Positions 1-53,298 of a DNA stretch of 64,000 nucleotides are shown piece after piece; positions within the stretch are counted from its first letter, which is position 1, and each line of letters begins with the position of its first letter. Where the stretch lies: assembly GCF_044324875.1 (NCBI RefSeq), contig NZ_CP172186.1; one strand, written 5' to 3'. Made by a program: the position numbers and the translations under genes. This DNA comes from Escherichia coli (GTDB lineage Bacteria > Pseudomonadota > Gammaproteobacteria > Enterobacterales > Enterobacteriaceae). Below the pieces are notes generated by a model. The model ran no database searches and was not told where the DNA came from. It saw only the letters and a program-made list of their open reading frames with translations.

Positions 1-23
1 TGGAGAGTGTTTTATCTGTGAAC

Positions 24-914
24 TCAGGCTGCCAGATCATCGTTTCCGATGGAAGCATAATAAGCTTTTTCTGCTTCTGCCGGTGGGATATGGCCCAGCC
101 TTTCCAGCAATCGTCGATTGTTATACCAGTCCACCCACGTGAGTGTGGCCAGCTCCACTTCTGTCCGGTTTTTCCAGCTCTTACGGTGTATTACCTCCGC
201 TTTGTAAAGGCCATTGATGCTCTCCGCCATCGCGTTGTCATACGAGTCACCAGTACTTCCTGTTGATGCCAGTAATCCGGCTTCCTTAAGCCGCTGTGTG
301 TAGGCCAGCGATACATACTGAGAACCTTTATCACTGTGATGGACTGTGCCGGACGGTCGACGGGCCCATAACGCCTGCTCCAGAGCATCCAGCACGAATG
401 TCGTTTCCATAGACGATGAGACCCGCCACCCCACGATGTATCCGGCAAACACATCAATGATGAACGCCACATAGACGACCCCCTGCCATGTGCTGACGTA
501 AGTAAAATCAGCCACCCACAACTGGTCAGGACGTTCTGCCACAAACTGACGGTTTACGCGGTCGCCTGCGGCAACGGCTTTCCGGCTGACGGTAGTGCGG
601 ACCTTTTTACCCCGGAGAACACCGGCAAGTCCCATAACCGCCATGAGGCGCGCCACTGTACATCTGGCTACCCTGATTCCTTCCCGTAACAACTGACGCC
701 AGACTTTACGCACACCGTATACCTGATGATTCCCATCGTATACGCGCAGTATCTCTTTCTTCAGCCAGTCATCGCGCTGCGCACGGGCACTGCGTTTATA
801 AGGATGATGTCGCTGTTGCTGACAGTGGTAATACGTTGACGGGGCAATATGTAGTTCACTGCATACCGGTCCGACCCCGTACAGCTTACGCAGCTTATCC
901 AGCAGTGGCATCAC
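24..914 (-). CDS. IS3-family transposase OrfB (DDE integrase core)
   Basis: 296-aa ORF, one substitution relative to 25472-26362; HSDKGSQY...YDNAMAES motif. Confidence 0.9.
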
Positions 915-1163
915 TTTTTCCAGAGGCGGTCGAACTCCGCCTTCGCAAAATAAGCGGAAGCCTGGCGAAGGATATCGTTACTGCGGCGCAGTTCACGATT
1001 TTCACGTTCCAGCTCTTTCAGACGCTGACGTTCAGCGGTGGTGAGCCCGCCATCACCGCCTCCGGTATCCCGCTCATGCTGGCGTACCCAGACACGCAGG
1101 GTCTCTGGCGTACAGCCAATCTTTGGAGCAATGGAACAAATTGCCGCCCACTGTGAGTCATAT
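911..1163 (-). pseudogene. 5'-truncated orfA of the IS629-like element
   Basis: Reverse complement matches the 3' two-thirds of orfA 25149-25475; N-terminal coding sequence absent. Confidence 0.7.
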
Positions 1164-1193
1164 GTAAGCGACTCGTCAGAACCGTATTGATAT

Positions 1194-2765
1194 TTACTGA
1201 GAGCTCAGATCAACTTTCCAGGGCAACAGATCGCGTACCCGGTTTGCCGGCCAGTCCTGGATATGTTCAATGACGTAACGCAGCCACTTTTCTGGCTCCA
1301 CATTGTTCAGACGGCATGTGCCGATCAGCGAGTACAACACCGCCGCATGTTCACCACCGCTGTCGGAACCCGCGAACATCCAGTTTTTCCGGCCTACGGC
1401 CACTCCCCGTAAGGCGTTCTCTGCGATGTTGTTGTCGATTTCCACCCAGCCATTACTGCAGTACACGTTCAGTGCATCCCACTGTTTCAGCAGGTATGCG
1501 AACGCTTTTGCCGTATCTGAGTGACGCGACAGTGTTTTCATCTGTTGCTGTATCCAGTCATACAGTGACTGCATCAGTGGCGCGGCTCTGGCTTTTCTTG
1601 CCGCCAGACGCTGTTCTGCTGAACAGCCCCGGACCTCTGCCTCGATGGCATACAGTTCACCGATACGCTGCAGGGCTTCCGTGGTGATGTAGGTGGGCGC
1701 TCTTGCATGCACATCGTGGATTTTTCTCCGGGCATGAGCCATACACGCGGCTTCCGTTATTCTGCCGGATTCGTATAACGCCCGGTAACCACCGTAAGCA
1801 TCGGCCTGAAGCACACCGCTGTAACCGGCCAGGTGATTTTGTGGATGGATACCTTTCCGGTCCGGACTGTACGCGAACCAGACCGCCGGGGGCATCTGTG
1901 AACCGGCGTTACGGTCATCACGGACGTAGACCCACAGCCGGGCTGTCCGGGTTTTACCGCTGCCCGGCTCCTGGACCGGGACGGGGATATCATCAGCATG
2001 GACTTTACCGGGCATCAGCACATACTGGCGCAGGACGTCATACAGCGGCTCCAGCAGTTCAGCAACAGCACCTGTCCAGCGCCCCAGTGTGGCACGGCTC
2101 AGCTCCACTCCCTGACGACGGTATATTTCTGACTGGCGGTATAACGGCAGATGGTCTGCATATTTCCCGGTGACAACATGGGCCAGAAGCCCCGCTCCGG
2201 CATAACTGCGTGCAATGGGTTTTGAAGGTACTGGTGCCTGCACGATATGGTCGCACCGGCAACAGGCCTGTTTCGGACGTTGTGTTTCGATAACCTTAAA
2301 GGCGCTGCTGATAAGCTCCAGTTGCTCTGACACATCACATCCCAGAGAACTGAGTTCACCACCACAGGCAGGACAGCATTCCTCTTCCGGCCGGATAACC
2401 CGGGTTTCACGGGGAAGTGAGGCCGGTAACGGTTTACGGGCTGAAGACTGGCGCAGGGCGGATGGCAGTACCGGGTCATATTGCTCACCCAGCGTTTCCG
2501 CCATTTCTTCCTGAAGTGCGCTGATTCGCTCCTGTGCTTCCTGTATCTGCCGTTCGGTTTTTGCACGAAGTTTTTCTGAGCTTTTACCGAACTGCATACG
2601 TTGCAGTTTCGCAACCAGCGCCTTCAGCCGGTTGATTTCGGAAGCATAAGCCGCCACCCGCTGTGAGAGCAGGCGGTTGTATTCAGCCATCTGGCGGATG
2701 GTGTCCTGTTGCGTCTGCAACAGTGCCCGCAGGCGGGCGTTCTCATGAGCAAGTGAGGTGTCCAT
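1194..2765 (-). CDS. tnpC: IS66-family transposase TnpC
   Basis: 523 aa, N-terminal coiled-coil/leucine zipper, CxxC zinc motifs, C-terminal DDE region. Confidence 0.9.
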
Positions 2766-2784
2766 ATCCTCACTTTACAACGGG

Positions 2785-3132
2785 TTATATGCGGATTCCA
2801 GCGCGTTCCGTTCGTTTCGGGTGCTTCCAGTTGATACCTTCAAGAAGCATGGATAACTGAGCCGGAGTAAGGTGCACCTTGCCGTCACGGGTGACTGGCC
2901 AGACGAAGCGGCCCCGCTCCAGGCGTTTGGTGAAGAGGCACAGTCCGTCACTGTCAGCCCACAACACTTTTATCTGGTCACCCCGGCGTCCGCGGAAGAT
3001 GAACAGGTGTCCGGAGAACGGGTCATCCTTCAGGACGTTCTGAACTTTTGATGCCAGGCCGTTAAAGCCATTTCGCATATCGGTGATACCTGCAACCAGC
3101 CAGATACGCGAACCTGCAGGGAGAGATATCAT
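2785..3132 (-). CDS. tnpB: IS66-family Orf2 (TnpB)
   Basis: 115 aa, typical IS66 Orf2 size, start/stop coupled to neighbours. Confidence 0.9.
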   Translation of the reverse strand: MISLPAGSRIWLVAGITDMRNGFNGLASKVQNVLKDDPFSGHLFIFRGRRGDQIKVLWADSDGLCLFTKRLERGRFVWPVTRDGKVHLTPAQLSMLLEGINWKHPKRTERAGIRI

Positions 3133-3809
3133 CAGTGGCTGCTCCCTTTTATTTCGCGGATAAGTGTCTGTAATAACGCCGGCGTCAGTTTACCTTTAAG
3201 CCTGAGAGTTCCGGCCGGCAGAACCAGCTCACAACACAGACTGTCGGACGGTGTATTTATCTGCTCTGGTTCCTGTGCGGGGGCCGGGATTTTATTATCC
3301 GGCTCCGGCGTTAACGTCACGGGAAGCAGTGCCGGCATATTTTTTCCGGAAGGCAGCAGGCCACCTTTCCGGTATTGATGGCGCCAGTTGAAGAGCAGGT
3401 TATCGTTGATTCCGTTTTCCCGGGCGATCTGCGCCACACAGGCTCCGGGCTGCAGTGACTGCTCCACTAAGGCGATTTTAAACTCATAAGGGAAGTTGGG
3501 CCGCCGGGGACGTTTTTTTACCACGGGGGCTTCGGATATAACGGTGCTTTCAGGACGTACGACTGGTACCGTGGAAAATTGTCCGTAAAGGCAGGCATCA
3601 AGTTCCTGCTCCGACATGCCTGCGGGCAAAGGCCACGAAAGGCCAGCTCTCCGAAAGCGCACGAACATACTACAAACTGTTGATTTTGGTACACCCAGGC
3701 GACGCCCGGCCACAACCCGGGGTAAATGTTCTTCAAAGTGAAGACGTAAAGCTTCAGTGATCCAGGTCCGGTGTTTCATACGATAGTGTCCATTAAAAAT
3801 GATGGACAT
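3132..3809 (-). CDS. IS66-family accessory protein Orf1 (TnpA-like) with N-terminal HTH
   Basis: C-terminal half resembles IS66 Orf1 (PRRPNFPYEFKIALVEQ...); N-terminal part has HTH and an LSWPLPA motif also seen in IS21-type IstA. Confidence 0.6.
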   Translation of the reverse strand: MSIIFNGHYRMKHRTWITEALRLHFEEHLPRVVAGRRLGVPKSTVCSMFVRFRRAGLSWPLPAGMSEQELDACLYGQFSTVPVVRPESTVISEAPVVKKRPRRPNFPYEFKIALVEQSLQPGACVAQIARENGINDNLLFNWRHQYRKGGLLPSGKNMPALLPVTLTPEPDNKIPAPAQEPEQINTPSDSLCCELVLPAGTLRLKGKLTPALLQTLIREIKGSSH

Positions 3810-4085
3810 TATTTTTGTAGAGCCGGAGGAAACAGACCAGACGGTTTAAATGAGCCGGTTACTTCCCGACAGACGACTCGGTGAAAAAAGTGGTGTGGCT
3901 GGCAATCCAGTCTGCGTCCCGGAAATGGACGATGCCGTTGAAGGACTGGCGAATGGCAATGAGCCGCTTTATTATCGAGTTCGGTGACCGCCTGGACGGT
4001 CACTTCTGAGAAAGGCATTTACACAGAATCTTAAACAGGCTCAAGTGAAGCTAAGCACACAATCAATTCAGGTCTTTGACATCCT

Positions 4086-4152
4086 CCATCTTAACTTCCA
4101 AAGGGTACTCCCGCCGACATAAGGCGGGAGTACCCTTTGGAAGTTAAGATGG
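4086..4152. repeat. Perfect 30-bp inverted repeat with 7-nt loop (hairpin; candidate bidirectional terminator or protein-binding site)
   Basis: CCATCTTAACTTCCAAAGGGTACTCCCGCC-gacataa-GGCGGGAGTACCCTTTGGAAGTTAAGATGG read directly. Confidence 0.9.
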
Positions 4153-4296
4153 AAAACCGACATAAGAACCCTCTGTTATCCTGAAACTCTTATATTTATA
4201 TAACTTGTGAAGGCGTTATGCACACAACCAATCTTCGCAAAGTCGGCGTCTCGTTGACATCCTCCACGCCCTGACGAATGTGGAGGAATGTCAATA

Positions 4297-6570
4297 TTAA
4301 TGTCCGGGCCACTCCTGTTGTTCAGTGACGTGATGTGATATTTCTTCTTTAGCTGTAGCCTCATTCTGGAGGTTTGAAGTAAATATACGCTCCATTGTTT
4401 GTGCAACCGATGGTGGCATTTTTTCTTCCACACGTTCCTCTTCCGGACAACTCTGTGTGATATAGCATACGTGCCGTTCTTCCCGGGATGTGGTATTGAT
4501 GATGTGAACTGCCTTGTTCCACAGGCTGTTTCCCCGGGCAGAGATATCTGTATCATATTGCGGAAGCAGATCCAGCGATGTTTGTGTTTCGTTAAGCTGC
4601 TTCTGGAAGGTATCGATGATACGGTAAGGCTCTGTACGGTTTTTACGACGTTTACGGGATGGTTTTGCTGTCAGTACACCAATAATGCTGCTGACATGCT
4701 CCGGTGTGGGAAAACGGCGCTGCACTGTCCTGGGGACGAGACGGCGGAGACGCTCCAGGCGGGGGGCTTCAACGGAAATATAGCGGTTGATGACCACCGG
4801 ATCACTGTCGCAACTTTTCTCGCTGTCCGGAATATACACAGAGGCTGACGGCACCACATCCCCCTGGAAAACGGTAAAGAACTCACCGGCATTCAGTCTG
4901 ATCAAATCCTGCACGTCGATTTTGCTTTCCATCTGGATGGTGATCTGGTTACCGTCCACCCAGGACTCACCCATCACACCATCGTGGCGCTGCAGGCTGC
5001 CCATTCTGGCCCGAGCCTCTTCACCGGCGGCATTTTTCACCGTTCTTGCCGTTTTGTCGTCACTGACAATGCGTCCGGCGAATTTGGTGCCGGCGTTCTG
5101 CATCAGTGTGGCGGTGTTGGTGGCGGAGGTCTGCCCTTCAATTCGCTCCTGATCCTGCGCCATCATTATCAGGGAAAACTCCAGTGAACGTACCTGGGTG
5201 GCCTCCACAGCAATGCGGTCTGTGTAGTAGGCACCGACTTCGTCAAGGATACAGATATAGGGGAAGCGGCCTTTGTATTTTTTTACTTCCAGGGTCTGTG
5301 CGTCTGTGCCTTCCAGGCGGTAGCCCAGGTCACGGGCGAGGATCATGCTCTGCTGGGTGATGAACATACGACCGAGTGCCGACGTGGTATGGGCTGATGT
5401 GTCCAGTGCGGGGATCATCACAATCAGAATTCGGTCGCTGTGGATACTGTCGCGAATATCGATGTCGCCGGCATCTGCCGCAAAGACGTCCCCGAAGGTT
5501 TCGGCAAAGGTTGTGAATGTTTCCGAGAACTGACCGGAGAGATAAGCATGCTGTTTACGGGGCTCCTCAGTCCAGGCTGACGGCGTTCTCACCAGTGACA
5601 TATCGAATCCCGGAACGTCCTGCAGGTAATTTCTCAGTGGTGCGATGGCTTCTTCCGGCCACTGGTCATCAAGCCCACGGCAATAGAGTTTTGCCATACC
5701 TTCCAGCGTCATATGCTCCCGTAACATCTGCAGGGACATGGTTTTTCTTTCCCGGACGCACCAGAATTTTGTGCCAAAGACCAGGGCTTTGTTCATGGCT
5801 ATCGCCCGTGACTGCCATTCACCCCCCTGAACGTTCTGGGGAAGCATGGACTGCATGGTTTCGGCGGTGAAGGCTTCGGTGCTGAATGCGAACGGGTTCC
5901 AGGTGTTTGACTGTGGGCGGGATTTTTCGCCGCTCTGAATGATTTCACTGCGGGATTTTCCGCCGTTCATGAAGTTGATGACCTCGATATCATCCTCCCG
6001 GCCAAAACGTCGGGAGAGATACCAGATTGTCCTCGTGGTATCGTTCTGTGCCTTTCCGTCAACAAAGGTAAAGCCTCTTCCCCAGCAGAGAGGGTTGAGC
6101 AGCCAGGCAAAGGTGGTTTCTGTTTTACCGCCACCGGTGGTGGAAAAAAATATGATATGCCGGGTGAGGTCATCCATGCTCAGCCAGAGCTCACGACCGA
6201 TATCGTTGATACGGCGGTAACCGACATAAAAAATCCCCCGTGCGGGGGATGTTTCATCTGCTTCATACTGAAACAGGGTGGGCCAGAAGCTGAAGAGGCT
6301 TCGCCTGACCTTTCTGTCCTGGGAGGGGTCATCAAGGCTGAGCGTCATGGGCATACGCAGGGGGCATCGCCAGCGTTGCAGCGTGAATATCACGGAGGTG
6401 ACCAGGGTGAACAGCAGACAGACAGGAAGGGCCAGTGGCCATATCAGGGCCGTAATGATACTGCCGGCCAGACACAGACCAATGATGTTCAGGTTGTGCA
6501 GTGCATTCCACAGCGGGTTTCCCCAGGCCGTGCGGTGTATGAGGTCAGGATTAACGTGATGCTGGCTCAT
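4297..6570 (-). CDS. trbC: Type IV coupling protein, TrbC/DotL(IcmO)-like
   Basis: 757 aa, N-terminal TM helices, Walker A STTGGGKTET; last gene of a trbA-trbB-trbC unit as in IncI1. Confidence 0.75.
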   Translation of the reverse strand: MSQHHVNPDLIHRTAWGNPLWNALHNLNIIGLCLAGSIITALIWPLALPVCLLFTLVTSVIFTLQRWRCPLRMPMTLSLDDPSQDRKVRRSLFSFWPTLFQYEADETSPARGIFYVGYRRINDIGRELWLSMDDLTRHIIFFSTTGGGKTETTFAWLLNPLCWGRGFTFVDGKAQNDTTRTIWYLSRRFGREDDIEVINFMNGGKSRSEIIQSGEKSRPQSNTWNPFAFSTEAFTAETMQSMLPQNVQGGEWQSRAIAMNKALVFGTKFWCVRERKTMSLQMLREHMTLEGMAKLYCRGLDDQWPEEAIAPLRNYLQDVPGFDMSLVRTPSAWTEEPRKQHAYLSGQFSETFTTFAETFGDVFAADAGDIDIRDSIHSDRILIVMIPALDTSAHTTSALGRMFITQQSMILARDLGYRLEGTDAQTLEVKKYKGRFPYICILDEVGAYYTDRIAVEATQVRSLEFSLIMMAQDQERIEGQTSATNTATLMQNAGTKFAGRIVSDDKTARTVKNAAGEEARARMGSLQRHDGVMGESWVDGNQITIQMESKIDVQDLIRLNAGEFFTVFQGDVVPSASVYIPDSEKSCDSDPVVINRYISVEAPRLERLRRLVPRTVQRRFPTPEHVSSIIGVLTAKPSRKRRKNRTEPYRIIDTFQKQLNETQTSLDLLPQYDTDISARGNSLWNKAVHIINTTSREERHVCYITQSCPEEERVEEKMPPSVAQTMERIFTSNLQNEATAKEEISHHVTEQQEWPGH

Positions 6571-7669
6571 TGTGATTATCCTCGGTATCTGTGGCTTTCA
6601 GGAACAGGCTGACGGTAGTGGCGTCTTTCAGGATGCCGGACGGCAGGTGCCAGCCGGTATCGGATAACACCCATGGGGTACCGCCAAAACCGAACTGGCG
6701 GAAAGCCTGGTTATTGACATCGATGGCAGCACGAGCAGCGGTCAGACACTTTTCATCCGGTGCAGCCGGTGCATCGCCGGTGGGTGCCATACCACCGTCT
6801 GCGGAATACAGCTGATGCCATCCGGTCGCCCGTTTTTGTGCGTCCGGTTCACACAGCAGTGGCGCAGTCCGGTTTGTGCTGGCCTCTCCGCCGATTACGG
6901 AGACCGGATAAATCACCACGCTGAATTCCCGGGCCAGTTGCTTAAGCGCGGGCTCCAGAAGACGGCAGTTGATGCATGCGGGGTCAAGGAAGGCGTAGAG
7001 TGTGCGTTCATGACCAGTGGAGAGATTAATGGTGAACATACCCCGGTCCGCGTTGCGTTTAAGTACAGTGGCCAGATTACGGCGGGCTTCAGCGACCAGA
7101 GTATTTTTGTCTGCTGTTATCGCCGGGGTAGCGGATGTCTCCTGCATTTCCTGTGATGCCGGGTGAACGATTTCATTTTTCGTCTCTGACGGGGCTACTG
7201 ACCGGACAATTTCCTTGTCGATGTGTAATGGTGCTGTTTCTGTTACGGATTCTGTGACAGGTACCCTGAGAGGGGAATCGCTGTCCGGTTTCAGTAAAAT
7301 ATATCCGGCTGTTACCGCTGTCAGAAGTGCCAGCACTAATCCTGCACCGTATATCAGCCCTCTCATGAAGCTGGTTTTCCGGGCAGGAAGTTCTGCATAT
7401 GCCGCGCTCAGACAGCTGTCAATCGCGGAGAGCATTCTGCCGATGTGATGTCCGGGACGTTCAGTATCAACGGTATCAACAAGCAGTGTTTCGGTTATTT
7501 CACGAAAAGGGGTGCTGAAGGACAGGTGCATCAGCCTGTTATTACGGTTAATCAGTGCGCCCAGTTCTGTAACCGGCAGGATGGCAATAACCTCCTGACC
7601 ACCGTCAGGGTACAGGGCGGTCAGGGACAGGTGTTTATTGTTCAGTGTTGCAGTGTAGCGGATGGTCAT
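6551..7669 (-). CDS. trbB: TrbB, DsbC-like thiol:disulfide interchange protein
   Basis: 372 aa, TM/signal anchor, thioredoxin-type CINC (CxxC) motif; coupled between trbA and trbC. Confidence 0.65.
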   Translation of the reverse strand: MTIRYTATLNNKHLSLTALYPDGGQEVIAILPVTELGALINRNNRLMHLSFSTPFREITETLLVDTVDTERPGHHIGRMLSAIDSCLSAAYAELPARKTSFMRGLIYGAGLVLALLTAVTAGYILLKPDSDSPLRVPVTESVTETAPLHIDKEIVRSVAPSETKNEIVHPASQEMQETSATPAITADKNTLVAEARRNLATVLKRNADRGMFTINLSTGHERTLYAFLDPACINCRLLEPALKQLAREFSVVIYPVSVIGGEASTNRTAPLLCEPDAQKRATGWHQLYSADGGMAPTGDAPAAPDEKCLTAARAAIDVNNQAFRQFGFGGTPWVLSDTGWHLPSGILKDATTVSLFLKATDTEDNHNEPASR

Positions 7670-8982
7670 TGTGCTTTTTCCTTGTCGGCGGGATGCTGTT
7701 TTTCGGTGGTTTCGGTGGTTTCGGTGGTTTCGGTGGTTTCGGTGGTTTCGGTGGTTTCGGTGGTTTCACCAGTGTCAGTGTCTTCGTCGTTATCATGGCG
7801 GCGGGGTATCACGTCATCCGTGAGTGACCAGCGGGTCCTGATCTGACGTTTACGATCGCGATCTGGCTGAGGTTCGTCCCATATCAGGCCCAGCCCCAGC
7901 ATGTCCCGTCGAAGCCCTTCAATGGCCTCTTCCACACAGGGTTCCGGGCAGGGGAGGCCGAGACGGCTGGCTTCATTTTCTGCCCGGGCAACGGCCACCA
8001 CGCCGGCCCCTTCGATGAAGCCTTTTGTGGTGTTTGCCCGGTGAAGGGCATAGAAGAGCGTCCGGTCAACGCCCTTGAGCCACAGCCAGTTCGGAGGCGT
8101 CAGGCGCAAATCATGTGCGTAAAGCCAGACCAGACCGCTGCGAACGTAACGGTGCTGCCTGAGCCACTTTTGTGCGCCTTCTGTTTTGATGACCCGGATA
8201 AAGGCGTTTCTGGCCAGTGAATACACCGGCGTGCTGAAACGCCCCTGGTCCCGTTTACTTTTGAGCCTGCAGGAGAGATTGAGGTTGTTCATCAGGGCTA
8301 CCGCTGCTTTCCGGTCACCGAGGAAGAACTGCAGGCCAAAGATGGCAAAGAGCGCTTTTTCATGTGGGGCCATGTCTTTCCAGCTGGTCAGTGGTTGCCC
8401 CAGTTGCGCCATGAAGCACTGGCGTGTGGACGCAACATCGAGCTGCATGTTGCGGATAAGGTTGTTCTGCTCCACAAAGGCTTCGGGGGTTAGTGCGACA
8501 CGGCGCTCGGGACGTTTTTGTCCGTGGAAGAGTCTGTTGTTGTCTCCGTCAGCCAGAACGGGGGCGATCGCCGGTGACAGAGCTGAAAAAATATGGGGCA
8601 GTGTGTGGATATTCAGTGGCCTGCGGGTAAAACGGGGCTGGGCCGGATGGTGAAACCACATCCACAGAAAGCCGAATGTCATGGGAAGCAGAATCAGCCA
8701 GAGGATCCCCACTGTCCGGGACATAACATCCAGCCACTGGCTGAAAGTGATGGTTGCCGCGTTGTTAGCAGTGATGGCCAGCAGGTTGTAACGGGGGACG
8801 GCAAAGTTGTGAAAGGGCCCCCAGTCAATCATGCCCCACAGTGTGTGCAGGATCAGGCAGGAGGCGAAGACGATTTCAGGTAAAAAGCGCCAGATGATAA
8901 TCGCAAAGAGCAGGCATATGGCACCGACGATATACCATATAGCCATTGGATCTTCGGCGGCAGACGTCTGTTGGTAAGACAC
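7666..8982 (-). CDS. trbA: TrbA/DotM(IcmP)-like inner-membrane protein with C-terminal (TET)n acidic repeat
   Basis: 438 aa, several TM segments; position and size fit IncI1 TrbA. Confidence 0.65.
   Translation of the reverse strand: MSYQQTSAAEDPMAIWYIVGAICLLFAIIIWRFLPEIVFASCLILHTLWGMIDWGPFHNFAVPRYNLLAITANNAATITFSQWLDVMSRTVGILWLILLPMTFGFLWMWFHHPAQPRFTRRPLNIHTLPHIFSALSPAIAPVLADGDNNRLFHGQKRPERRVALTPEAFVEQNNLIRNMQLDVASTRQCFMAQLGQPLTSWKDMAPHEKALFAIFGLQFFLGDRKAAVALMNNLNLSCRLKSKRDQGRFSTPVYSLARNAFIRVIKTEGAQKWLRQHRYVRSGLVWLYAHDLRLTPPNWLWLKGVDRTLFYALHRANTTKGFIEGAGVVAVARAENEASRLGLPCPEPCVEEAIEGLRRDMLGLGLIWDEPQPDRDRKRQIRTRWSLTDDVIPRRHDNDEDTDTGETTETTETTETTETTETTETTEKQHPADKEKAQ
7701..7766. repeat. Tandem 9-bp repeat TTTCGGTGG x7 (coding, minus strand ACCGAAACC = Thr-Glu-Thr)
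   Basis: Seven perfect head-to-tail copies inside the 3' end of trbA. Confidence 0.9.
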
Positions 8983-9292
8983 GGGGATTCCTCCATAGAT
9001 GAATGGATAAATTTCGGGATTAAGTCGGGTGGCATGAATGCGAATCAGCGCCGGTAATAACCGGACAGGAATGAATTCAACAGGACATTTTTACAGAGAA
9101 GAGCGAACGGCAGAAGGTGGTGGGAGACAGGTACAAAAAAACCGACTGGTGAGGCCGGTTTTTTTGCGATTCCGGGGTGGAGTTGGTGGCTCTGACCGGA
9201 GGAAGTCTCTTTTCAGCTAACAATGAGAGAGCTGTTGTGACAGGCAATGTAAGAGTAAGCAGCAGTGATTTCCTCCATTGACGGAGAAACGG

Positions 9293-9376
9293 ATGATTAA
9301 CCTGTTAATCATCGTTCTCAGGGCGGTTGTTGCTGTGGCTAACGCAGTGATAGCTCTCCGGGAACTGGTTGACTGA
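9293..9376 (+). CDS. 27-codon hydrophobic peptide MINLLIIVLRAVVAVANAVIALRELVD (candidate type I toxin-like small membrane peptide)
   Basis: ATG 7 nt downstream of GGAGA; single predicted TM helix; hairpin 9399-9428 just downstream; below ORF-track length cutoff. Confidence 0.3.
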   Translation: MINLLIIVLRAVVAVANAVIALRELVD

Positions 9377-9785
9377 TAATCCCGGAAACGTACTTAAGGG
9401 CAGAGGGTCACCTCCTTCTGCCCTTTAACAAAATATGCTCAGGTTAAAAATCGAAAACCTTCCTGCACTTCCTGTGCCTGTTCCCGTGAGCCAAACATGA
9501 GCCGGCTTTTACCCGGAACTCCCCAGGAAATATATTCTACATCCACCCACCATTTTCCGTATTCTTCATACGGTCCGGATATCACTTTAGTGACAAATGC
9601 ATCAATCAGGTTCATTTTTACACCTTTCTGTTATTCTGCTTATTACGACCAGCAGACAGCAAATATTAAAAATAACGCGGCGGTAATGCGTATTCCGCTC
9701 TATTCGATCACGGATTGGCATCGAAGTCCGATCAGCGATTCGCATCCATTCGATCAACCGGGAACTTAACTTTTTCTACCGCTTT

Positions 9786-10565
9786 TTAACGCGTTTTTTC
9801 GCTGCTTTCCACTACCGGGGGATTTTTCCTCAGTGACTCTCCCTGAAGGACCACTCGGTGTGAGTTATGTACCAGTCTGTCCAGGATGGCATCTGCTGTT
9901 GTTGGGTTCTCCATCAGACCATGCCATTTATCTACCGGGAACTGGCTTACCACTATCGTGCTGCTTTGTCCGTAACGATCCTCTATGAGCTCCAGAAGGT
10001 CATTACACTGGGCGTTACTTAACTGTTCCAGCCCCAGATCGTCCAGGATTAGAACCTGTATTTTTTGCAACTGTTTCAGATATTTCAGCCAGCTGCCATC
10101 AACACGTCCCTGAGCCAGTTGTTCCAGTAATCGCCCGGTTCTACAGTACCGGACGCTGTGTTTCTGTCGACATGCCTGTTCGCCCAGCGCATTGGCTATC
10201 CAGCTCTTGCCACATCCTGTCGGACCGGTTATCAGCAGGTTTTTCCTGTGGGTTATGTAGTGGCCGTTCAGCAGTTCTCTCATCTGTTCAGCCCGCAGAC
10301 CTCTTGAGGCCGGATAGCGCAGCCCTTCCGGTGTTGCCTGGTATTTCAGGCCGGCATTTTTTCTCAACCGTGCCACACGGCTGTTTTCCCTGCTCAGAAG
10401 CTCGTCATCAACCAGCAGCGTCAGCCTTTCCTCGAACGACAGTTCGTCGTAGGTCTGAGGCGTTTCCCGCTGCCGTATCAGGCTCCCGGCCATCGCCGGG
10501 AGTTTCAGTTGGGTCAGTTTGTTTAACAGGTTATCACTCATACTGTTGTTCCTTCTGTCAGTGGT
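9786..10565 (-). CDS. istB: IS21-family helper ATPase IstB
   Basis: Walker A GPTGCGKSW, DnaC-like AAA+; start taken at MSDNLLNKL inside the 332-aa ORF. Confidence 0.9.
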   Translation of the reverse strand, partial: TTDRRNNSMSDNLLNKLTQLKLPAMAGSLIRQRETPQTYDELSFEERLTLLVDDELLSRENSRVARLRKNAGLKYQATPEGLRYPASRGLRAEQMRELLNGHYITHRKNLLITGPTGCGKSWIANALGEQACRQKHSVRYCRTGRLLEQLAQGRVDGSWLKYLKQLQKIQVLILDDLGLEQLSNAQCNDLLELIEDRYGQSSTIVVSQFPVDKWHGLMENPTTADAILDRLVHNSHRVVLQGESLRKNPPVVESSEKTR

Positions 10566-12204
10566 AGTAGCCCGGACCACGCAGGTTTTCATGCTCTGAA
10601 GCATATGCCGGATGTTGTTCGCCCTGGCGGGATAATGGAAGCTCCAGGTTCTCCCGATGGTGACGCAGCAGATTGTCGATAAAGCGTCTGTCAGGGGCGT
10701 TATAGTGCAGGGCAACGTAACAGGCCTTTTCCAGCCGTTCCGGGCCGTATTTTTTCTGAAGTGCCAGCAGCCCCAGAACTGCACGATAAGCCAGTTCCGG
10801 ATGGGGTTTTGCCTTCAGCATGGATTCAACCACCCGGCCTGTGGACGGGCCCGTACGTTTTCCCTGCTCGATCAGGCGTTCCGGTGTCCATGTCCCGTGC
10901 TGCCGGTGGCGCTCTGGCATGTGAAGCGGATTGGTTGTGTGTTTATATTCATGTGTGCTGCGCGGATGTTGCGCCACACACTGCCCCTTGTGCCAGAGCT
11001 GTACCACCGACTGCCCCGCCTTCAGTGACAGACGCTGACCGACCAGTTCGTGTGGAACGGAGTACCAGTGACGGGCATATTCAACGTGGTAGTCAGGGCC
11101 AACCTTCACAGCTTTGTATTCCGTGTATTCATAAGGTGCCAGAGGCAGCGGAGAGAGTGCTGGCGCATCCAGTATGCGGAAGCGTTCTGCACGGGTTTGA
11201 TTGCCGTACCCCTTCATTGGCCGGTTATTCATGTCTGTCAGTAACTCCCTAAGGCGCGCATTCAGCGCCCTGAGCGTGTGGAAGGTTTCATTACGGATGC
11301 GGGCAAGAAGCCATCGTTCAACGATGAGGACGCCGTTTTCTGCTTTTGGTTTATCTTTAGGTTTGCGTGGTCGGGCCGGGATGATAACCGTGCCATAGTG
11401 CTCAGCCAGTGCCTGATAACTGTCGTTGATGACAGGCTCATATCGATCGGCCTTTTTCACTGCGCTTCTGAGGTTATCGGGGATGAGCAGCTTCGGTACG
11501 CCGCCCAGGAAGGTCAGGCAACGGCTGTGGGCATTTAACCATGACATCATGTCCTGACCTTCGCACGCTTCAACGTAGGTATAGTTGGACGCCCCCATTA
11601 CGGCCACGAAGATTGCCACGCGGCGTATCTCACCGGTGTCCGGATTAATAACAGGAACCGTAGGACCACAGAAGTCGATAAAAAGCTTTTCGCCGGCACG
11701 ATGCTCCTGGCGCATGGAGAGACGTCGCGTTTTTTTCCACTCCCGGTAGCAACGGCAGAAGTGCGAGTATCCCATCGCTTTGTTACCCGCCTGTGCCTTG
11801 TATTCCATCCACAACAGTTGCCGCGTCACACCTGGTTTTCTCATTTCCGTATCGAAGTACAACATGTCAGGCATTACAAGCTCTGATGCAAAGGTGTCTT
11901 TGGGCGGAAAAATGAGTTTCTCCAGCGTGTCATGGGATATATCAGCAGGTAATGGCCATGACAGAGAAGAGGCTTTGAAGCGGGCAAGAACCTCAAAAAC
12001 GGTTGAGGCGCTGATGTGTAACGTCAGTCCGATACAACGGTTAGTCAGCTTCTTGTCGAACTTGAGCTGAAGGATCTTAAAACAGGTTTCCATAGTGCTC
12101 CTGGATTTTCTCTTTCTGGACATTGACGTCTCCACTGGTTTAAACACGGCAATGGAGACTGTGGTGAAAAGAGTTAATTCCCGGAGTGACTGGCAGGATG
12201 CCAA
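10558..12204 (-). CDS. istA: IS21-family transposase IstA (true start probably internal, METCFKIL at ~12093)
   Basis: N-terminal HTH, LSWPLPA motif, DDE core; 2-nt spacing to istB. Confidence 0.9.
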   Translation of the reverse strand: MASCQSLRELTLFTTVSIAVFKPVETSMSRKRKSRSTMETCFKILQLKFDKKLTNRCIGLTLHISASTVFEVLARFKASSLSWPLPADISHDTLEKLIFPPKDTFASELVMPDMLYFDTEMRKPGVTRQLLWMEYKAQAGNKAMGYSHFCRCYREWKKTRRLSMRQEHRAGEKLFIDFCGPTVPVINPDTGEIRRVAIFVAVMGASNYTYVEACEGQDMMSWLNAHSRCLTFLGGVPKLLIPDNLRSAVKKADRYEPVINDSYQALAEHYGTVIIPARPRKPKDKPKAENGVLIVERWLLARIRNETFHTLRALNARLRELLTDMNNRPMKGYGNQTRAERFRILDAPALSPLPLAPYEYTEYKAVKVGPDYHVEYARHWYSVPHELVGQRLSLKAGQSVVQLWHKGQCVAQHPRSTHEYKHTTNPLHMPERHRQHGTWTPERLIEQGKRTGPSTGRVVESMLKAKPHPELAYRAVLGLLALQKKYGPERLEKACYVALHYNAPDRRFIDNLLRHHRENLELPLSRQGEQHPAYASEHENLRGPGYYH

Positions 12205-12408
12205 TCAATGATCGGAAGCATGCCAAATCGTGATCGATTGTGATGCCAAACTGTGATCGGAGATGGATGCCAAATCATGATCGATTCGAATGCCAAACTG
12301 CGATCGATTCAGATGCCATTTTGCAGGTAAAAATGGCAATTTTTTTCATGCTGTATTTTTGCCATTTATTTTCTTTGAAATGGTTTTTTTCTTCATATCA
12401 GCAAATAA

Positions 12409-12876
12409 TTATTTCTTATTCTGTTTTCTCCAGGTCCATGGTGGTACCGGATTTTTATCTGCCCATAATCCCCGCTTCAGGGCGCGGGCATCACGCTGGA
12501 GCGGCGGGAGAGTATAGTCATTATTGTAGTCCGGGTACACCCAGGCAGCGCCGTTACGGACCTGCCAGCGATTTGCTTCTGTGCCGTCAGCGGTATAGAC
12601 CCGGCCGAGAATACGGCCATACCTGTCTGTCTGCGCGTATTGCACGGTTACGGGCTTTCCGGCCACCAGGTCCTTCAGCTGAGTGGCTGACCAGCGTCCA
12701 AAGGGCTGTTTCTTTTCCGGTGCATCAATATTAGCCAGACGGACCCTGACAGGCTTTTTGTCCTGTAATATTTCCAGCGTATCACCATCAAGAACGCGGA
12801 TGACGTGCCCCTGAATCTGTGCGGCACAGAGAGAAGCGGAAAAAATAATGGTGAGTGAAAAGATATATTTTATCAT
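12409..12876 (-). CDS. nuc: Secreted thermonuclease (staphylococcal nuclease/SNase-like) Nuc
   Basis: 155 aa, signal peptide, VIRVLDGDT and RLANIDAPE motifs typical of SNase fold. Confidence 0.8.
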   Translation of the reverse strand: MIKYIFSLTIIFSASLCAAQIQGHVIRVLDGDTLEILQDKKPVRVRLANIDAPEKKQPFGRWSATQLKDLVAGKPVTVQYAQTDRYGRILGRVYTADGTEANRWQVRNGAAWVYPDYNNDYTLPPLQRDARALKRGLWADKNPVPPWTWRKQNKK

Positions 12877-12978
12877 TTCATCGTCTCCTTTTTATTTATG
12901 AAAACAGGTGCAATTAATATTGCGAAATAATAACGTTCAGGTGTGTTTTTTTTGGCAGTGTGATACTTCACGCAGGGC

Positions 12979-13659
12979 ATGAATTCCAGTACGCTGATAT
13001 CCGTGATGATACGGCAACAGATATCCGGTGACGGTATGCAGGAACATATTGATTATCAGATTGAGAAATATCAGTTCAGGGCCAGGAATGAGTCACCGCG
13101 ACTGATGCGCCAGTGGGAAGATGTCATGCGTGAATGCCGTGATACCGGAGCAGGAGCCAGGGAGCGGCTGCGGATTGCCTTACTTAATGTTGATTATGTG
13201 ACCAGTTTTGAACTGCCGTTTCGTCTGCTGTTAACCCGGACACCGCAGATGATTGACAGCGTGCGGCGGGAATGGCAGCTCAGCCAGAAAAAAGTCGTAT
13301 TCAATGAGCGGCAGCGGGGATGTGTATACAGTCTGCAGAATGACTTATCCGGCGTGCCGGATAGCTTCAGTTACAGTCTTGCGACGCGAATACGGCGGGT
13401 GGACAGCTATGGCATGACGACGCGTTGTTTCACTGATATAGCCGGGCAGGTTAAAGCCCCGACAGCACGGCTGAAACTGGCGCTGGAAAGCGGGTTAATT
13501 GTCACCGCGCTGGATGGTCTGTTCTGGCTTGGTATTCAGCGTATTGCCGCAGATGTGCAGCGGCTGCGTCAGTCCGGAATGACAATCATCACCCGGGATG
13601 TTGAGGTCTCAGACTCGCTGACCGGAACCACACGGGTTGTTTCCGGGTACAGACTTTGA
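12979..13659 (+). CDS. Hypothetical protein, possible C-terminal DNA-binding helix
   Basis: 226-aa ORF divergent from nuc with AT-rich shared upstream region; no recognised family. Confidence 0.45.
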   Translation: MNSSTLISVMIRQQISGDGMQEHIDYQIEKYQFRARNESPRLMRQWEDVMRECRDTGAGARERLRIALLNVDYVTSFELPFRLLLTRTPQMIDSVRREWQLSQKKVVFNERQRGCVYSLQNDLSGVPDSFSYSLATRIRRVDSYGMTTRCFTDIAGQVKAPTARLKLALESGLIVTALDGLFWLGIQRIAADVQRLRQSGMTIITRDVEVSDSLTGTTRVVSGYRL

Positions 13660-14647: not shown

Positions 14648-14901
14648 CGGTGGGGTACAAACGCAGAAATTTTGTTGTCATTACATCATCAGTTTTAGCC
14701 TGCAGAGACGCTGAAAAATCAGCGTTTTCAGACCCTGTTCAGGTTAGTGAATATTCTTGCCTGGCCTTTCGGCAATATCAATCCCCTGATGTGTGCACAC
14801 GTAGTCACTTTCCGGCTTTATTTCTGTCCCTGACACAAAATACGTGGTGGCATGAAAAGGATTGTGGCGGACAGGAAAACGATTAGAATAGCGGCGGGCG
14901 C

Positions 14902-15195
14902 TTGAGGCTGTATGCCGAAAGCGTTTTGTGGACGGCATGTAGCAGAAAGCCCCAGGCGATTTTTTTATCAATCAACCCAGGGCCCACTGTAATGCCTAGA
15001 CAACATTATAGTAGCCCGATGACGGCCGAAAGGCAATGGAGGGGCTGCGATGCCACAACGAACGTTTTTAATGATGTTAATCGTCGTCTGTGTGACGATA
15101 CTGTGTTTTGTCTGGATGGTGAGGGATTCGCTTTGCGGATTTCGTATCGAGCAGGGAAATACGGTGCTTGTGGCAACGTTAGCCTACGAAGTTAA
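14902..15195 (+). CDS. Possible pndC (mok-like) overlapping reading frame of the pnd locus
   Basis: ORF in alternative frame overlapping the Hok-family toxin gene, as in hok/mok loci; real start uncertain. Confidence 0.35.
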   Translation: MRLYAESVLWTACSRKPQAIFLSINPGPTVMPRQHYSSPMTAERQWRGCDATTNVFNDVNRRLCDDTVFCLDGEGFALRISYRAGKYGACGNVSLRS

Positions 15196-24526: not shown

Positions 24527-25120
<594 letters not shown>

Positions 25121-25148
25121 TAAACTCCCTGAGAAAGAGGTAAACAGA

Positions 25149-25475
25149 ATGACTAAAAATACTCGTTTTTCCCCCGAAGTCCGTCAGAGGGCGATTCGTA
25201 TGGTTCTGGAAAGTCAGGGCGAATATGACTCACAGTGGGCGGCAATTTGTTCCATTGCCCCAAAGATTGGCTGTACACCGGAGACTCTGCGTGTCTGGGT
25301 ACGCCAGCATGAGCGGGATACCGGAGGCGGTGATGGCGGGCTCACCACCGCTGAACGTCAGCGTCTGAAAGAGCTGGAACGTGAAAATCGTGAACTGCGC
25401 CGCAGTAACGATATCCTTCGCCAGGCTTCCGCTTATTTTGCGAAGGCGGAGTTCGACCGCCTCTGGAAAAAGTGA
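25149..25475 (+). CDS. IS3-family transposase OrfA (HTH)
   Basis: 108 aa [19 protein letters not shown]..., leucine-zipper region; overlaps orfB start. Confidence 0.9.
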
Positions 25476-26362
25476 TGCCACTGCTGGATAAGCTGCGTAA
25501 GCTGTACGGGGTCGGACCGGTATGCAGTGAACTACATATTGCCCCGTCAACGTATTACCACTGTCAGCAACAGCGACATCATCCTGATAAACGCAGTGCC
25601 CGTGCGCAGCGCGATGACTGGCTGAAGAAAGAGATACTGCGCGTATACGATGGGAATCATCAGGTATACGGTGTGCGTAAAGTCTGGCGTCAGTTGTTAC
25701 GGGAAGGAATCAGGGTAGCCAGATGTACAGTGGCGCGCCTCATGGCGGTTATGGGACTTGCCGGTGTTCTCCGGGGTAAAAAGGTCCGCACTACCGTCAG
25801 CCGGAAAGCCGTTGCCGCAGGCGACCGCGTAAACCGTCAGTTTGTGGCAGAACGTCCTGACCAGTTGTGGGTGGCTGATTTTACTTACGTCAGCACATGG
25901 CAGGGGGTCGTCTATGTGGCGTTCATCATTGATGTGTTTGCCGGATACATCGTGGGGTGGCGGGTCTCATCGTCTATGGAAACGACATTCGTGCTGGATG
26001 CTCTGGAGCAGGCGTTATGGGCCCGTCGACCGTCCGGCACAGTCCATCACAGTGATAAAGGTTCTCAGTATGTATCGCTGGCCTACACACAGCGGCTTAA
26101 GGAAGCCGGATTACTGGCATCAACAGGAAGTACTGGTGACTCGTATGACAACGCGATGGCGGAGAGCATCAATGGCCTTTACAAAGCGGAGGTAATACAC
26201 CGTAAGAGCTGGAAAAACCGGACAGAAGTGGAGCTGGCCACACTCACGTGGGTGGACTGGTATAACAATCGACGATTGCTGGAAAGGCTGGGCCATATCC
26301 CACCGGCAGAAGCAGAAAAAGCTTATTATGCTTCCATCGGAAACGATGATCTGGCAGCCTGA
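25472..26362 (+). CDS. IS3-family transposase OrfB (DDE)
   Basis: 296 aa, rve domain; made as OrfAB fusion by -1 frameshift in this family. Confidence 0.9.
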
Positions 26363-26405
26363 GTTCACAGATAAAACACTCTCCAGGAAACCCGGGGCGG
26401 TTCAA

Positions 26406-49298: not shown

Positions 49299-51117
49299 GT
49301 GCCAATCCGGTTCGTGGATTAGGGTATCAGGTAGCACTGTTCTGACAGGAAAAATCGCAAATGGAGAACGACTACCTTTGCCGTCTGGTTTTTCTGCCAG
49401 CCAGTGTACCTGGAGCGTCAGCAATGCTGAAAACCCGCATGGCTGGAAGCCAAATTACTTCGCAGGTTCTGTTGCGACATATGATTCGAACAGGATTGTG
49501 AAGTGTGGTTACTACGATGAATACAATTTTCACGGCGGTACAAACAGGAACGACCTGACGGGGAAATGTAGTTACATTGTGGTTTGCCAGTAAATCACTT
49601 TGTCATTGGCAAATGGCATGTACAGTTATTTTTCCAATGATGTGTTCTGTCGTATCGCAATAGCCATACCAGGCATTATTGTTTACAGGTATTGAACGGA
49701 CAAGCCAGATAAAGCCAATTCCAGAGCTGCATTCTGCACCACCCCCGATCACCTTCTTACCCATTGGGCAGGTGGCAGTAGCACCAGGCCAGCGGAGTTT
49801 TGATGCTGTTACTTTGACGATTTCAATATCGCCTTTTCCTGCATTTTTCCACGAACCGGATTGGCACGGAGGCCAGTGCCAATCCGGTATCTGGACAACG
49901 ACAAAAATGAACTTCACTACCAGTACATACAATATCGGGAAAAATACTCGTAATCTGAGCATTGGCGTACATGCGTACTGCTCGTGGACATACCTTAATG
50001 GCTCGCCTTTTGGTGGTTTTCAGCAGATATACGCCGACCAAAACAAGGTTTGGTATGTGAATAATTATGCGTGGGGAAATTATGAGTCCGGTGGCACAAT
50101 TACAGTGACATGCCTCAACCTTCCTGGTGCCGGAATCTAACCAAAAGGGCAACAGTAAGCATCGACGTGCTCTTCATCAATACCATCTCCGATGCCGTAC
50201 ATTCTTGTACCTGTCATGACGTACCCGGCAGGGCACTGAATCGGCTTGTAATAAATAGAACCTCCACTTCTGCCACCGATAAAATGTGCGGAGGTCGCTT
50301 CATACCATTTACAGGCAGAATAGTTCACTTTATTGCCTCCAAGCCACAAACCGGATTGGCACTGGCCTCCGTGCCAATCCGGTGTGTGGGTTGGCTTTGA
50401 ATCCTACCCTGTGGGAAGCCCTATCCCGTGGCCATCTGCCACTCCTCCACAAGGCTATCTGTTGATGAACGGCCAGTCGTTTTCCTGTTCCCGGTATCCT
50501 CAGCTTGCCCGTGCTTATCCTGGCTGTAAATTGCCCGATCTGCGCGGTGTTTTTATCCGTGGCTGGGATAACGGGAAGGGACTTGATGGTGATCGGAACA
50601 GACAACTCCTGAGTTATCAGGCCGATCAATCAGGCGTCTATCACGAACGTGGCGGATGGCTGAAAGGGCATCATAGTGGTATGCCATACTGGGCACAGGG
50701 GAGTACCACAGAAATGCGTCCCAAAAATATTGCATTCAACTACATTGTTAAAGCCAGCTAGGGACTCACATCTGATAGGCATACACAGAGAAAACACCGT
50801 TACCACAGGCGTAATTTTGTGTTGGTCTGGAGATGATTTGATATGACGCTCCCACTGGCACGGCAAATGAAATAAATGCTGTCTTTCCGTAGGAGGGGTT
50901 ATTGCTGGCATTCATACCAATGAAAGCGCCGTTCACATAGCCCTGAAGATTTGATGTGTTGGCGCAATCACCGCCACCGGCACCATTTCCACCGGAAGCG
51001 TACACAAACAAAGTTCCTCTGCCGTTATTTCTCCCGTTAAATGTTCCCCGGTGAGAACCCAGATTGCTGTAACTTCCGTCAGGTGCACCAATCGTTCGCC
51101 ACACACCGGATTGGCAC
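49299..51117. repeat. PilV shufflon: six 19-bp repeats GTGCCAATCCGGTNNGTGG bounding three invertible segments with convergent alternative pilV 3' exons
   Basis: Repeats at 49299-49317(+), 49849-49867(-), 49876-49894(+), 50345-50363(-), 50371-50389(+), 51099-51117(-); overlapping ORFs on both strands. Confidence 0.85.
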
Positions 51118-52100: not shown

Positions 52101-52804
52101 GTGAATATCTCCGAAGTGCGGAAAACGGAATCAGGGAGGAGGGTTAGTGCATACAGTGATGCGCAGAGAAACGGGGCGAACGGCAGTGCCTGCTGATGTC
52201 TGTGACGGCAGAAGAGGAGGATAAACAGAAATGCCCCGGAAGCTGCGGCGGTGATTAGCAGCGGCGTGTGTTGTGGCTGTGTCCACATTGCAATTCCTGC
52301 TATCAGGAATACATCACCAAGGCCGAGTGCTTCTGTTCCTTTTGCCGTTATGAAAAACTGCCGTAGCAGGTATGTCATGCCGAACCAGAGTGATGCGTTG
52401 AGGAGGCTGTATGTGAGCTCCTCCAGGCTGTACCTGAACGCTGCCCCCAGAACAATCAGTGAAAGCGTGAATATCCGGGGAAGCCGACAGACGGCGATGT
52501 CCGTCAGCGTCATTACAGTTAATAATCCCGTCAGAATGGAAAGGAATAACAGCCCCGTGGCTTCAACACCATATGCGCCGTTGAGGCTGACACTCACTAT
52601 GGCCAGAAGGCAACACACGTACACCACCGGCCTGGGCGGCCGGGTGTCGTGTACTGCTGACAGGTAGAGAGCGGCGGTGATGTATGCAATATAAAGAATA
52701 ACCGCCAGGATGATGATTATTATTGTCATGCTCAGTAATGCGCTCACCGTCACCTCGTATTTATTAATATTGTCTGAAATACCGGTTGTGGATTTTTCGG
52801 GCAT
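52097..52804 (-). CDS. pilU: PilU prepilin peptidase-like polytopic membrane protein
   Basis: 235 aa, multiple TM; position between pilT and pilV. Confidence 0.7.
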   Translation of the reverse strand: MPEKSTTGISDNINKYEVTVSALLSMTIIIIILAVILYIAYITAALYLSAVHDTRPPRPVVYVCCLLAIVSVSLNGAYGVEATGLLFLSILTGLLTVMTLTDIAVCRLPRIFTLSLIVLGAAFRYSLEELTYSLLNASLWFGMTYLLRQFFITAKGTEALGLGDVFLIAGIAMWTQPQHTPLLITAAASGAFLFILLFCRHRHQQALPFAPFLCASLYALTLLPDSVFRTSEIFT

Positions 52805-53240: not shown

Positions 53241-53298
53241 TATGATAATCCCGGCAGTGACAGCATCCTCTGGTATTTAAGGATGCTGTCCGGAAACA

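Follow-up and report, generated by a model that had tools for sequence, protein, structure and literature searches.

The IS cluster beside trbC in an IncK2/Z plasmid segment of Escherichia coli is probably the right edge of an inserted island

Where is the relaxase module of this plasmid? In the IncI1 plasmid R64 (NC_005014.1), trbABC are convergent with nikB-nikA-oriT; the nikB and trbC stop codons are 36 bp apart, and neither pemIK nor an IS lies between them. In the IS-free IncK2/Z plasmid p1_020022 (NZ_CP032880.1), nikB is likewise directly convergent with trbC, in agreement with the IncI1 reference order given in an earlier note on this DNA. We analysed 64 kb of an E. coli contig (NZ_CP172186.1, assembly GCF_044324875.1; hereafter the window), in which trbABC have the same order and orientation as in R64 and the trbC stop is followed, beyond a short spacer, by IS elements. 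The earlier note held that these elements had replaced the module, and that the relaxase may lie beyond the window or the transfer region may be non-self-transmissible.

The three genes form a contiguous series on the minus strand, as expected for an I-complex plasmid: the open reading frames trbA (7666-8982) and trbB (6551-7669; annotated in relatives as a DsbC-family trbB) and trbC (4297-6570), which is intact, encodes 757 residues of the I-complex type and has its stop at 4297. TrbC scored 1008 bits against NCBIfam NF041447 (cut-off 800); along its whole length it shares 76% identity with TrbC of R64. The exact protein is recorded in 37 blocks of public assemblies. We searched all 64 kb by tblastn with NikA and NikB of both the nearest relative and R64 and found nothing better than E = 1; blastn of the oriT regions against the window gave no match. 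The claim that 1-4296 lacks a relaxase thus holds for the entire window, and the combination of a MOBP NikB, NikA and oriT beside the trbC 3' end, typical of the I-complex, is not present inside it.

The plasmid is a member of the I-complex and its type is IncK2/Z, not IncI1 as had been supposed. Its nearest relative is pLH50-c-A (NZ_CP100501.1), an IncK2/Z plasmid from Swiss poultry E. coli that MOB-suite types as conjugative. Identity to pLH50-c-A is 99.83% over 1-1163, 99.7-99.97% over 3863-49317 (about a dozen SNPs) and 98.8% over 51105-64000. The two share the backbone, an IS629-like element beside an IS1414 tail, a palindrome-bearing spacer and an identical TrbC. The remaining differences are IS insertions, an in-frame repeat change in trbA (18 bp longer in pLH50-c-A), a single-base indel within IS1 debris (31076), and the shufflon. 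pLH50-c-A lacks the ISCro1 of 1164-3862, an IS21-family element (9687-12325) and a second IS629-like copy (25095-26404). The tra, trb and pil genes of the window are all collinear with those of pLH50-c-A; we therefore found no support within the window for loss of self-transmissibility. Nucleotide similarity to R64 begins only inside trbC. The alignment to R64 that the earlier note had proposed, carried out with 3801-4700, returned 95 bp inside trbC at 75% identity; the 36-bp intergenic region of R64 is unrelated, and 3850-4296 could not be aligned.

The interval between IS and trbC (4043-4296) is backbone, the pemK-trbC intergenic spacer, and is 100% identical in nine IncK2/Z plasmids. It is hairpin-rich, as noted earlier: a perfect palindrome with 31-bp arms occupies 4085-4153, and a hairpin with a 14-bp stem follows directly after the trbC stop (4254-4294; fold z-score -10.5). 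A search of this spacer for a canonical intrinsic terminator or promoter found none. In the IS-free plasmid pRM10042-1 (NZ_CP028120.1), a 200-bp segment stands in place of the 59-bp palindrome core. This plasmid has the order nikA-nikB-pemI-pemK-spacer-trbC and represents the undisturbed state; pemIK lies between nikB and trbC in the lineage of the window plasmid.

Three IS elements separate the spacer from position 1. The outermost, at 1-1163 on the minus strand, is a partial IS629-like element of the IS3 family, identified by NCBIfam NF033516 (308 bits for orfB, 24-914) and by 94.6% ungapped identity to the IS629 annotated on pO157 Sakai. An ALIL pseudoknot, which stimulates -1 frameshifting in IS3-type transposases, was detected at 840-956 on the same strand (Rfam RF01497, 116 bits; gathering score 50). 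The element is of the IS629 type (orfA/orfB with -1 frameshift, 1310 bp, high identity to IS629), and this copy is incomplete. Its outer end is 19 bp short, cut only by the window edge; its inner 128 bp, comprising the start of orfA and IRL, are gone. The window holds a second, full IS629-like copy of 1310 bp at 25095-26404, inverted and 94.9% identical to IS629 of pO157.

ISCro1, of the IS66 family, follows as a complete 2699-bp element on the minus strand (1164-3862). Its genes tnpC (1194-2765), tnpB (2785-3132) and tnpA (3132-3809) scored above the NCBIfam cut-offs of NF033517, NF033819 and NF038385, respectively. Its termini read GTAAGCGACTC... and ...GAGCCGGTTAC, and it has the tnpA-tnpB-tnpC set with a DDE transposase and inverted repeats starting GTAA (ends GTAAGCGACTC and GTAACCGGCTC) that define IS66 elements. 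It is 99.96-100% identical to copies in pXDL-2 and pLH10-b-1-A, the latter being the 100% match.

On the right, 3863-4042 (plus strand) is the 3' terminus (180 bp) of the IS256-family element IS1414, with the last 48 transposase codons and the right inverted repeat ...AAACAGGCTC but without astA. This remnant is 100% identical to the IS1414 3' end, right inverted repeat included, annotated by PGAP in pLH10-b-1-A and pE16-3. It corresponds to positions 1155-1334 of our IS1414 probe (L005 15561-16894, in which the element starts at probe position 21); for this short piece of 48 codons no NCBIfam match was obtained. The earlier description, an IS66-family element inserted into a truncated IS629-like copy, was therefore right about the complete ISCro1 and the partial IS629-like element to its left; the right flank is IS1414, and a target duplication is lacking.

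No 8-bp target duplication surrounds the ISCro1 of the window: the left flank reads AGTCATAT and the right flank TTCCCGAC. The copies in pLH10-b-1-A, pXDL-2 and p135-2 all have 8-bp duplications, so the boundary here would have arisen by secondary deletion or recombination. Consistent with this, pLH50-c-A keeps 163 bp that the window has lost at ISCro1, made up of 128 bp of the IS3-family end and 35 bp of IS1414. In p135-2 (NZ_CP080262.1), a 99.9% identical ISCro1 also lies inside IS1414 beside trbC, with a true duplication of TTCCCGAC, the same 8-bp IS1414 site as at the right junction of the window. Unlike the window, p135-2 has ISCro1 in the opposite orientation, an intact duplication and both IS1414 halves. 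The shared site suggests that ISCro1 inserted at TTCCCGAC and that an IS-adjacent deletion then extended to the left. ISCro1 has used TTCCCGAC twice, in opposite orientations, and the site may therefore be a hot spot for insertion of this IS66-family element. We rejected homologous recombination between copies of ISCro1 as the origin of the difference between p135-2 and the window, since exchange inside an IS cannot alter which IS end joins a given flank.

Both ISCro1 junctions (1163/1164 and 3862/3863) are private and recent, as they were absent from every collection searched. Megablast with 1-6000, 1-9000, 3840-4700 and the 240-bp left junction recovered neither in one piece from plasmids or complete E. 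coli genomes, an exact 33-bp search of genome and metagenome contigs gave zero matches for the right junction, and neither of the junction-spanning open reading frames (69 and 50 residues) has a protein record. An exact-protein look-up with TrbC and the 438-residue TrbA returned relatives only; short-read contigs break in the repeated IS1414 tail. We also rejected a widespread IS3::ISCro1 composite, because matches over 1-3862 are separate pieces in different order.

What the cluster probably belongs to is suggested by pLH50-c-A, in which this IS629-like/IS1414 junction forms the right end of an IS island of 6.9 kb with AAGTGAAG on both sides. This octamer, present once after pemK in pRM10042-1, occurs in pLH50-c-A a second time between pemK and an inverted IS1414 end; in the window, the right copy of the 8-bp duplication is at 4043-4050. 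By this sequence comparison, the island of pLH50-c-A is an insertion immediately behind the pemK stop, with the trbC spacer on its other side. In the coordinates of that locus (L004, where window position 1 equals 12001) the island spans 6600-13506, and on its far side oriT-nikA-nikB-pemI-pemK is complete: nikA at 2890-3222, nikB at 3234-5936 (901 residues, with the Relaxase and TraI_middle Pfam families) and pemIK at 6005-6597. NikB and NikA of pLH50-c-A have the accessions WP_033810803.1 and WP_001291056.1, and a stretch of 232 bp represents its oriT region. The oriT region is 91% and NikB 70% identical to the R64 counterparts. The island, with its intact 8-bp duplication, has thus not replaced the module in pLH50-c-A, contrary to what was first proposed for the window.

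Other relatives have the same arrangement. The far side of the island is nikA-nikB-pemIK in pLH10-b-1-A, p135-2 (where nikB is 16.5 kb from trbC), pEF5-18-41_2 and pCh101, the nikB 3' end with pemIK in pEGY2, and pemK in pE16-3. pXDL-2 has a different IS cluster directly between nikB and trbC, with pemIK not listed. All of these plasmids are typed as conjugative with a MOBP relaxase. Counting pLH50-c-A, pemK or nikB is kept beyond the island in all seven complete relatives with an IS1414-type island, and also in pXDL-2.

We conclude that 1-4296 is probably the right edge of an IS island inserted, not substituted, between oriT-nikA-nikB-pemI-pemK and trbC in an I-complex plasmid of type IncK2/Z. 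The anatomy and junctions of the segment, its close match to pLH50-c-A and the gene order of the relatives were read directly from sequence, whereas we infer the order of events and the content left of position 1. An IS1414-bounded element would have entered right after the pemK stop, duplicating AAGTGAAG. An IS629-like element would then have inserted into the IS1414 copy nearer to trbC, of which 217 bp were left. Finally, in the plasmid's own lineage, ISCro1 would have arrived, and 163 bp would have been lost, 128 bp from the end of the IS629-like element and 35 bp from IS1414; these changes would explain why ISCro1 now connects the body of the IS629-like element with the tail of IS1414 and has no target duplication. 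The window would begin inside the island, and the first sequence to its left should be the 19-bp IS end TGAACCGCCCCGGGTTTCC and, next to it, ...TACTGTTGATTTTTTGTT as in pLH50-c-A. Further left the relaxase module is expected intact, with, by collinearity, the pemK stop at about 5.4 kb, the nikB stop at about 6.1 kb and oriT at about 9.2 kb from position 1. Of the two outcomes envisaged earlier, a relaxase beyond the window is thus favoured. Its distance from trbC would have no functional consequence, since NikB is trans-acting and oriT functions in cis from any place on the replicon; in an I-complex plasmid, a knockout of nikB was restored in trans (PMC10286972).

True loss of oriT-nikAB-pemIK by deletion or recombination mediated by ISCro1, the IS629-like copies or IS1414 is unlikely. 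Such a plasmid could build the mating apparatus, and its own DNA would not be processed or mobilised. The absence of nikA, nikB and oriT from all 64 kb, the small ISCro1-adjacent deletion (163 bp) at the same spot and several nearby IS copies of the same family, able to recombine, agree with it. However, the same 64-kb stretch is devoid of relaxase genes in intact relatives too, so that absence from the window is uninformative. Moreover, 1-1163 is closer to the pLH50-c-A copy, which has the same orientation and position, than to the second IS629-like copy of the window (2 versus 5 mismatches), and in every complete island-bearing relative examined pemK or nikB is still found beyond the island. 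We consider it improbable that this is a relaxase-less IncK2/Z derivative in poultry E. coli, with oriT-nikAB deleted via IS and an otherwise complete type IVB mating apparatus; if it were, it would rely on the relaxase of a co-resident plasmid or not transfer at all. Relocation or inversion of the module on the replicon via inverted IS copies, away from its pLH50-c-A position, is highly improbable: draft contig UDHK01000035.1 (L007) has an identical TrbC, the same IS1414/IS629-like junction, a truncated IS629-like element and an inverted Rpn...nikA-nikB-pemIK segment, but its IS629-like element breaks at window-equivalent position 968, whereas that of the window is unbroken to position 1, like that of pLH50-c-A.

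Some observations count against the favoured reading. Rearrangement at these IS copies does occur in the lineage, as the UDHK01000035.1 inversion shows; the window also has the inverted second IS629-like copy; and the ISCro1-associated 163-bp loss is an IS-mediated deletion that has already occurred once at this spot.

The reading of 1-4296 as the edge of an inserted island has little relevance beyond correct annotation, and an IS pile-up beside trbC is ordinary and already known in kind. The convergent gap between nikB or pemK and trbC of I-complex plasmids tolerates insertions: in relatives it holds an IS island (about 7-16 kb), an EcoRII-Dcm restriction-modification cassette (3 kb) or a segment of 200 bp. 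A relaxase missing from a window that ends in such an island is therefore no sign of lost self-transmissibility. The private ISCro1 junctions are useful to plasmid epidemiology as lineage markers for this poultry-associated IncK2/Z plasmid.

In the IncI1 reference R64, trbC is convergent with nikB–nikA, as the earlier note had assumed, with 36 bp between the nikB and trbC stops, and the IS-free IncK2/Z plasmid p1_020022 has the same direct arrangement. That note saw no relaxase ORF in 1-4296, and tblastn extended this to the whole 64 kb: neither NikA and NikB of R64 nor NikA, NikB, the small upstream ORF, PemI and PemK of the nearest relative, pLH50-c-A, had a match there, with NikA and NikB from either source scoring no better than E ~1. 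By blastn against the window, 12 kb of the nearest relative's upstream region and the R64 oriT region gave IS matches only, or nothing.

The genes trbA (7666-8982), trbB (6551-7669) and trbC (4297-6570; 757 aa) lie on the minus strand. TrbC scored 1008 bits against NCBIfam NF041447 (cut-off 800) and was 76% identical to R64 TrbC over its full length; public assemblies carry the identical protein in 37 blocks. NCBI calls its family 'F-type conjugative transfer protein TrbC', a misleading name for an I-complex protein that also has a weak VirD4-like coupling protein match (NF045973, E = 2e-5) and a faint match to Pfam TraG-D_C. The C-terminal Thr-Glu-Thr repeat of TrbA (7690-7760, the trbA 3' end) is variable in length; TrbA ranges from 420 to 444 aa among relatives, and the in-frame repeat of the window is 18 bp shorter than that of pLH50-c-A.

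Left of the trbC stop lies a backbone spacer (4043-4296), rightly described before as hairpin-rich. It holds a perfect palindrome with 31-bp arms (4085-4153) and a second stem directly past the trbC stop (4254-4294), and it folded 10 standard deviations better than shuffled sequences. Neither hairpin resembles a canonical intrinsic terminator. The 59-bp core of the palindrome occupies the exact slot of an unrelated 200-bp segment in the IS-free plasmid pRM10042-1; in three contigs with identical TrbC (L006, L009 and L010) the slot holds a 3-kb EcoRII and Dcm restriction–modification cassette. One copy of the motif TTGACATCCTCCA lies immediately to the left of this slot and another in the post-trbC hairpin (4076-4088 and 4254-4266; two matches versus 0.11 expected).

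Beyond the spacer, three elements fill 1-4042. The last 180 bp of IS1414 (IS256 family; 3863-4042), comprising 48 codons and the right inverted repeat, were 100% identical to annotated copies. Next to this remnant is a complete ISCro1 (IS66 family; 1164-3862, 2699 bp) whose tnpA, tnpB and tnpC each exceed their NCBIfam cut-offs. The outermost element (1-1163) belongs to the IS3 family, with orfB at 24-914 and an ALIL frameshift pseudoknot at 840-956, and aligned without gaps at 94.6% identity to the IS629 annotated on pO157 Sakai. The family labels IS629-like and IS66 were thus correct, but ISCro1 is not simply nested in the IS629-like copy: it is flanked by that copy on the left (junction GAGTCATAT/GTAAGCG) and by IS1414 on the right (junction CCGGTTAC/TTCCCGACAGACG). 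Its 8-bp flanks are unlike, hence there is no target duplication, whereas ISCro1 in pLH10-b-1-A (100% identical to the window copy), pXDL-2 and p135-2 has one in each case. The IS629-like copy had also been called truncated. This is true of its inner end, which lacks the last 128 bp present in pLH50-c-A, and not of its outer end, where the window simply starts 19 bp inside the element.

The best matches to the window were IncK2/Z I-complex plasmids from poultry E. coli. The closest, pLH50-c-A (NZ_CP100501.1, 139,970 bp), is typed in PLSDB (MOB-suite) as conjugative with a MOBP relaxase and MPF_I mating-pair formation. It is collinear with the window, with identities of 99.83% over 1-1163, 99.7-99.97% over 3863-49317 (~12 SNPs) and 98.8% over 51105-64000. 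The last of these, the pil region past the shufflon, carries 152 mismatches against 99.97% identity in the rest, and its lower identity suggests a recombinational mosaic. pLH50-c-A differs in a 1-bp indel at 31076 (IS1 debris) and in the arrangement of the shufflon (49317-51105). It also lacks the IS21-family element at 9687-12325 (target duplication GGTAA) and the second complete IS629-like copy at 25095-26404 (duplication AAAC, in Tn3-family debris). Neither these differences nor the trbA repeat change and the ISCro1 event described below disrupt any tra, trb or pil gene. The IS21-family element (2639 bp) lies in the intergenic DNA separating trbA from a nuclease gene and matches, at 100% identity, a copy located elsewhere in contig JAPXBN010000002.1. 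The second IS629-like copy (1310 bp; with an ALIL pseudoknot of its own, 25430-25546) runs opposite to the copy at 1-1163, with which it shares 99.6% identity; recombination between the two could therefore invert the 24 kb from trbABC through traU. Rfam models for sok antitoxin RNA (14896-15052; 125 bits) and an AgrB-like antisense RNA (9133-9220; 52 bits) matched beside the position of a dqlB type I toxin annotated in relatives.

pLH50-c-A does not have the ISCro1 of the window, and it keeps 163 bp that are absent at that site, namely 128 bp at the end of the IS629-like element and the 35 bp of IS1414 that adjoin them. Neither ISCro1 junction was found in any collection searched, so the event appears private to the lineage of the window. 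The right junction coincides exactly with an 8-bp IS1414 site, TTCCCGAC (3863-3870). This same site is duplicated around ISCro1 in p135-2 (6302-6312 and 9012-9019 of its locus, L002), where the element has the opposite orientation; because recombination inside an IS cannot swap the end attached to a flank, the two are independent insertions at one site. In the simplest history, ISCro1 would have entered TTCCCGAC in a pLH50-c-A-like ancestor, and an IS-adjacent leftward deletion would then have removed 171 bp, made up of the 128-bp IS629-like end, 35 bp of IS1414 and one copy of the duplication. The converse, insertion into the IS629-like copy and then a deletion running rightward as far as the preferred site, is equally possible. 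With two cases only, TTCCCGAC may be an ISCro1 insertion hot spot in IS1414.

In the lineage of the window a pemIK toxin–antitoxin pair follows nikB. pRM10042-1 represents the IS-free state (nikA–nikB–pemI–pemK–spacer–trbC), and in pLH50-c-A pemK is separated from the spacer by a 6.9-kb island of IS debris (6600-13506 of its locus, L004). Both edges of the island carry inverted IS1414 3' ends and the direct repeat AAGTGAAG, which is single-copy in pRM10042-1; this pattern is characteristic of an insertion, not of a replacement. Its ends (L004 6600-6855 and 13290-13506) are two inverted IS1414 3' ends rather than one left and one right end, implying that it entered as a composite of two IS1414 copies whose interior has since been scrambled. 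On its far side pemK, pemI, nikB, nikA and the oriT region are intact; NikB (901 aa; Pfam Relaxase and TraI_middle) is 70% and the oriT region 91% identical to that of R64. Other complete plasmids whose IS1414-type island adjoins this spacer agree. Full nikA–nikB–pemIK lies past the island in pLH10-b-1-A, p135-2 (nikB 16.5 kb from trbC), pEF5-18-41_2 and pCh101, and the locus edge shows the nikB 3' end and pemIK in pEGY2, and pemK in pE16-3, a plasmid typed MOBP. In pXDL-2, which has no pemIK listed, a different IS cluster sits directly between nikB and trbC, and in a draft contig with identical TrbC (UDHK01000035.1) the nikAB segment is inverted yet present.

Position 1 of the window corresponds to L004 12001. 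If the source plasmid is collinear with pLH50-c-A, the pemK stop would lie ~5.4 kb, the nikB stop ~6.1 kb, and the nikA start and oriT ~9.1-9.3 kb to the left. The IS629-like copy at 1-1163 has two mismatches to the orthologous pLH50-c-A copy versus five to the second copy of the window, and matches the former in position and orientation, so nothing marks it as recombinant. We consider an intact nikAB–oriT within ~20 kb left of the window quite probable. The earlier observation was thus mostly right, but its anatomy needed correction, and the idea that the module had been replaced is not supported, given the inserted island of pLH50-c-A with nikAB–oriT intact beyond it. Of the two options raised, a relaxase beyond the window or a non-self-transmissible transfer region, the former is likely.

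An oriT acts in cis from anywhere on the replicon. The IS pile-up is expected to have no functional consequence, because trbC and the hairpin behind it are unaltered, NikB acts in trans and oriT in cis; complementation restored an I-complex plasmid whose nikB had been knocked out (PMC10286972). The pile-up is ordinary accretion in a permissive convergent intergenic gap, and such accretion between nikB or pemK and trbC is already well represented among public IncK2/Z plasmids.
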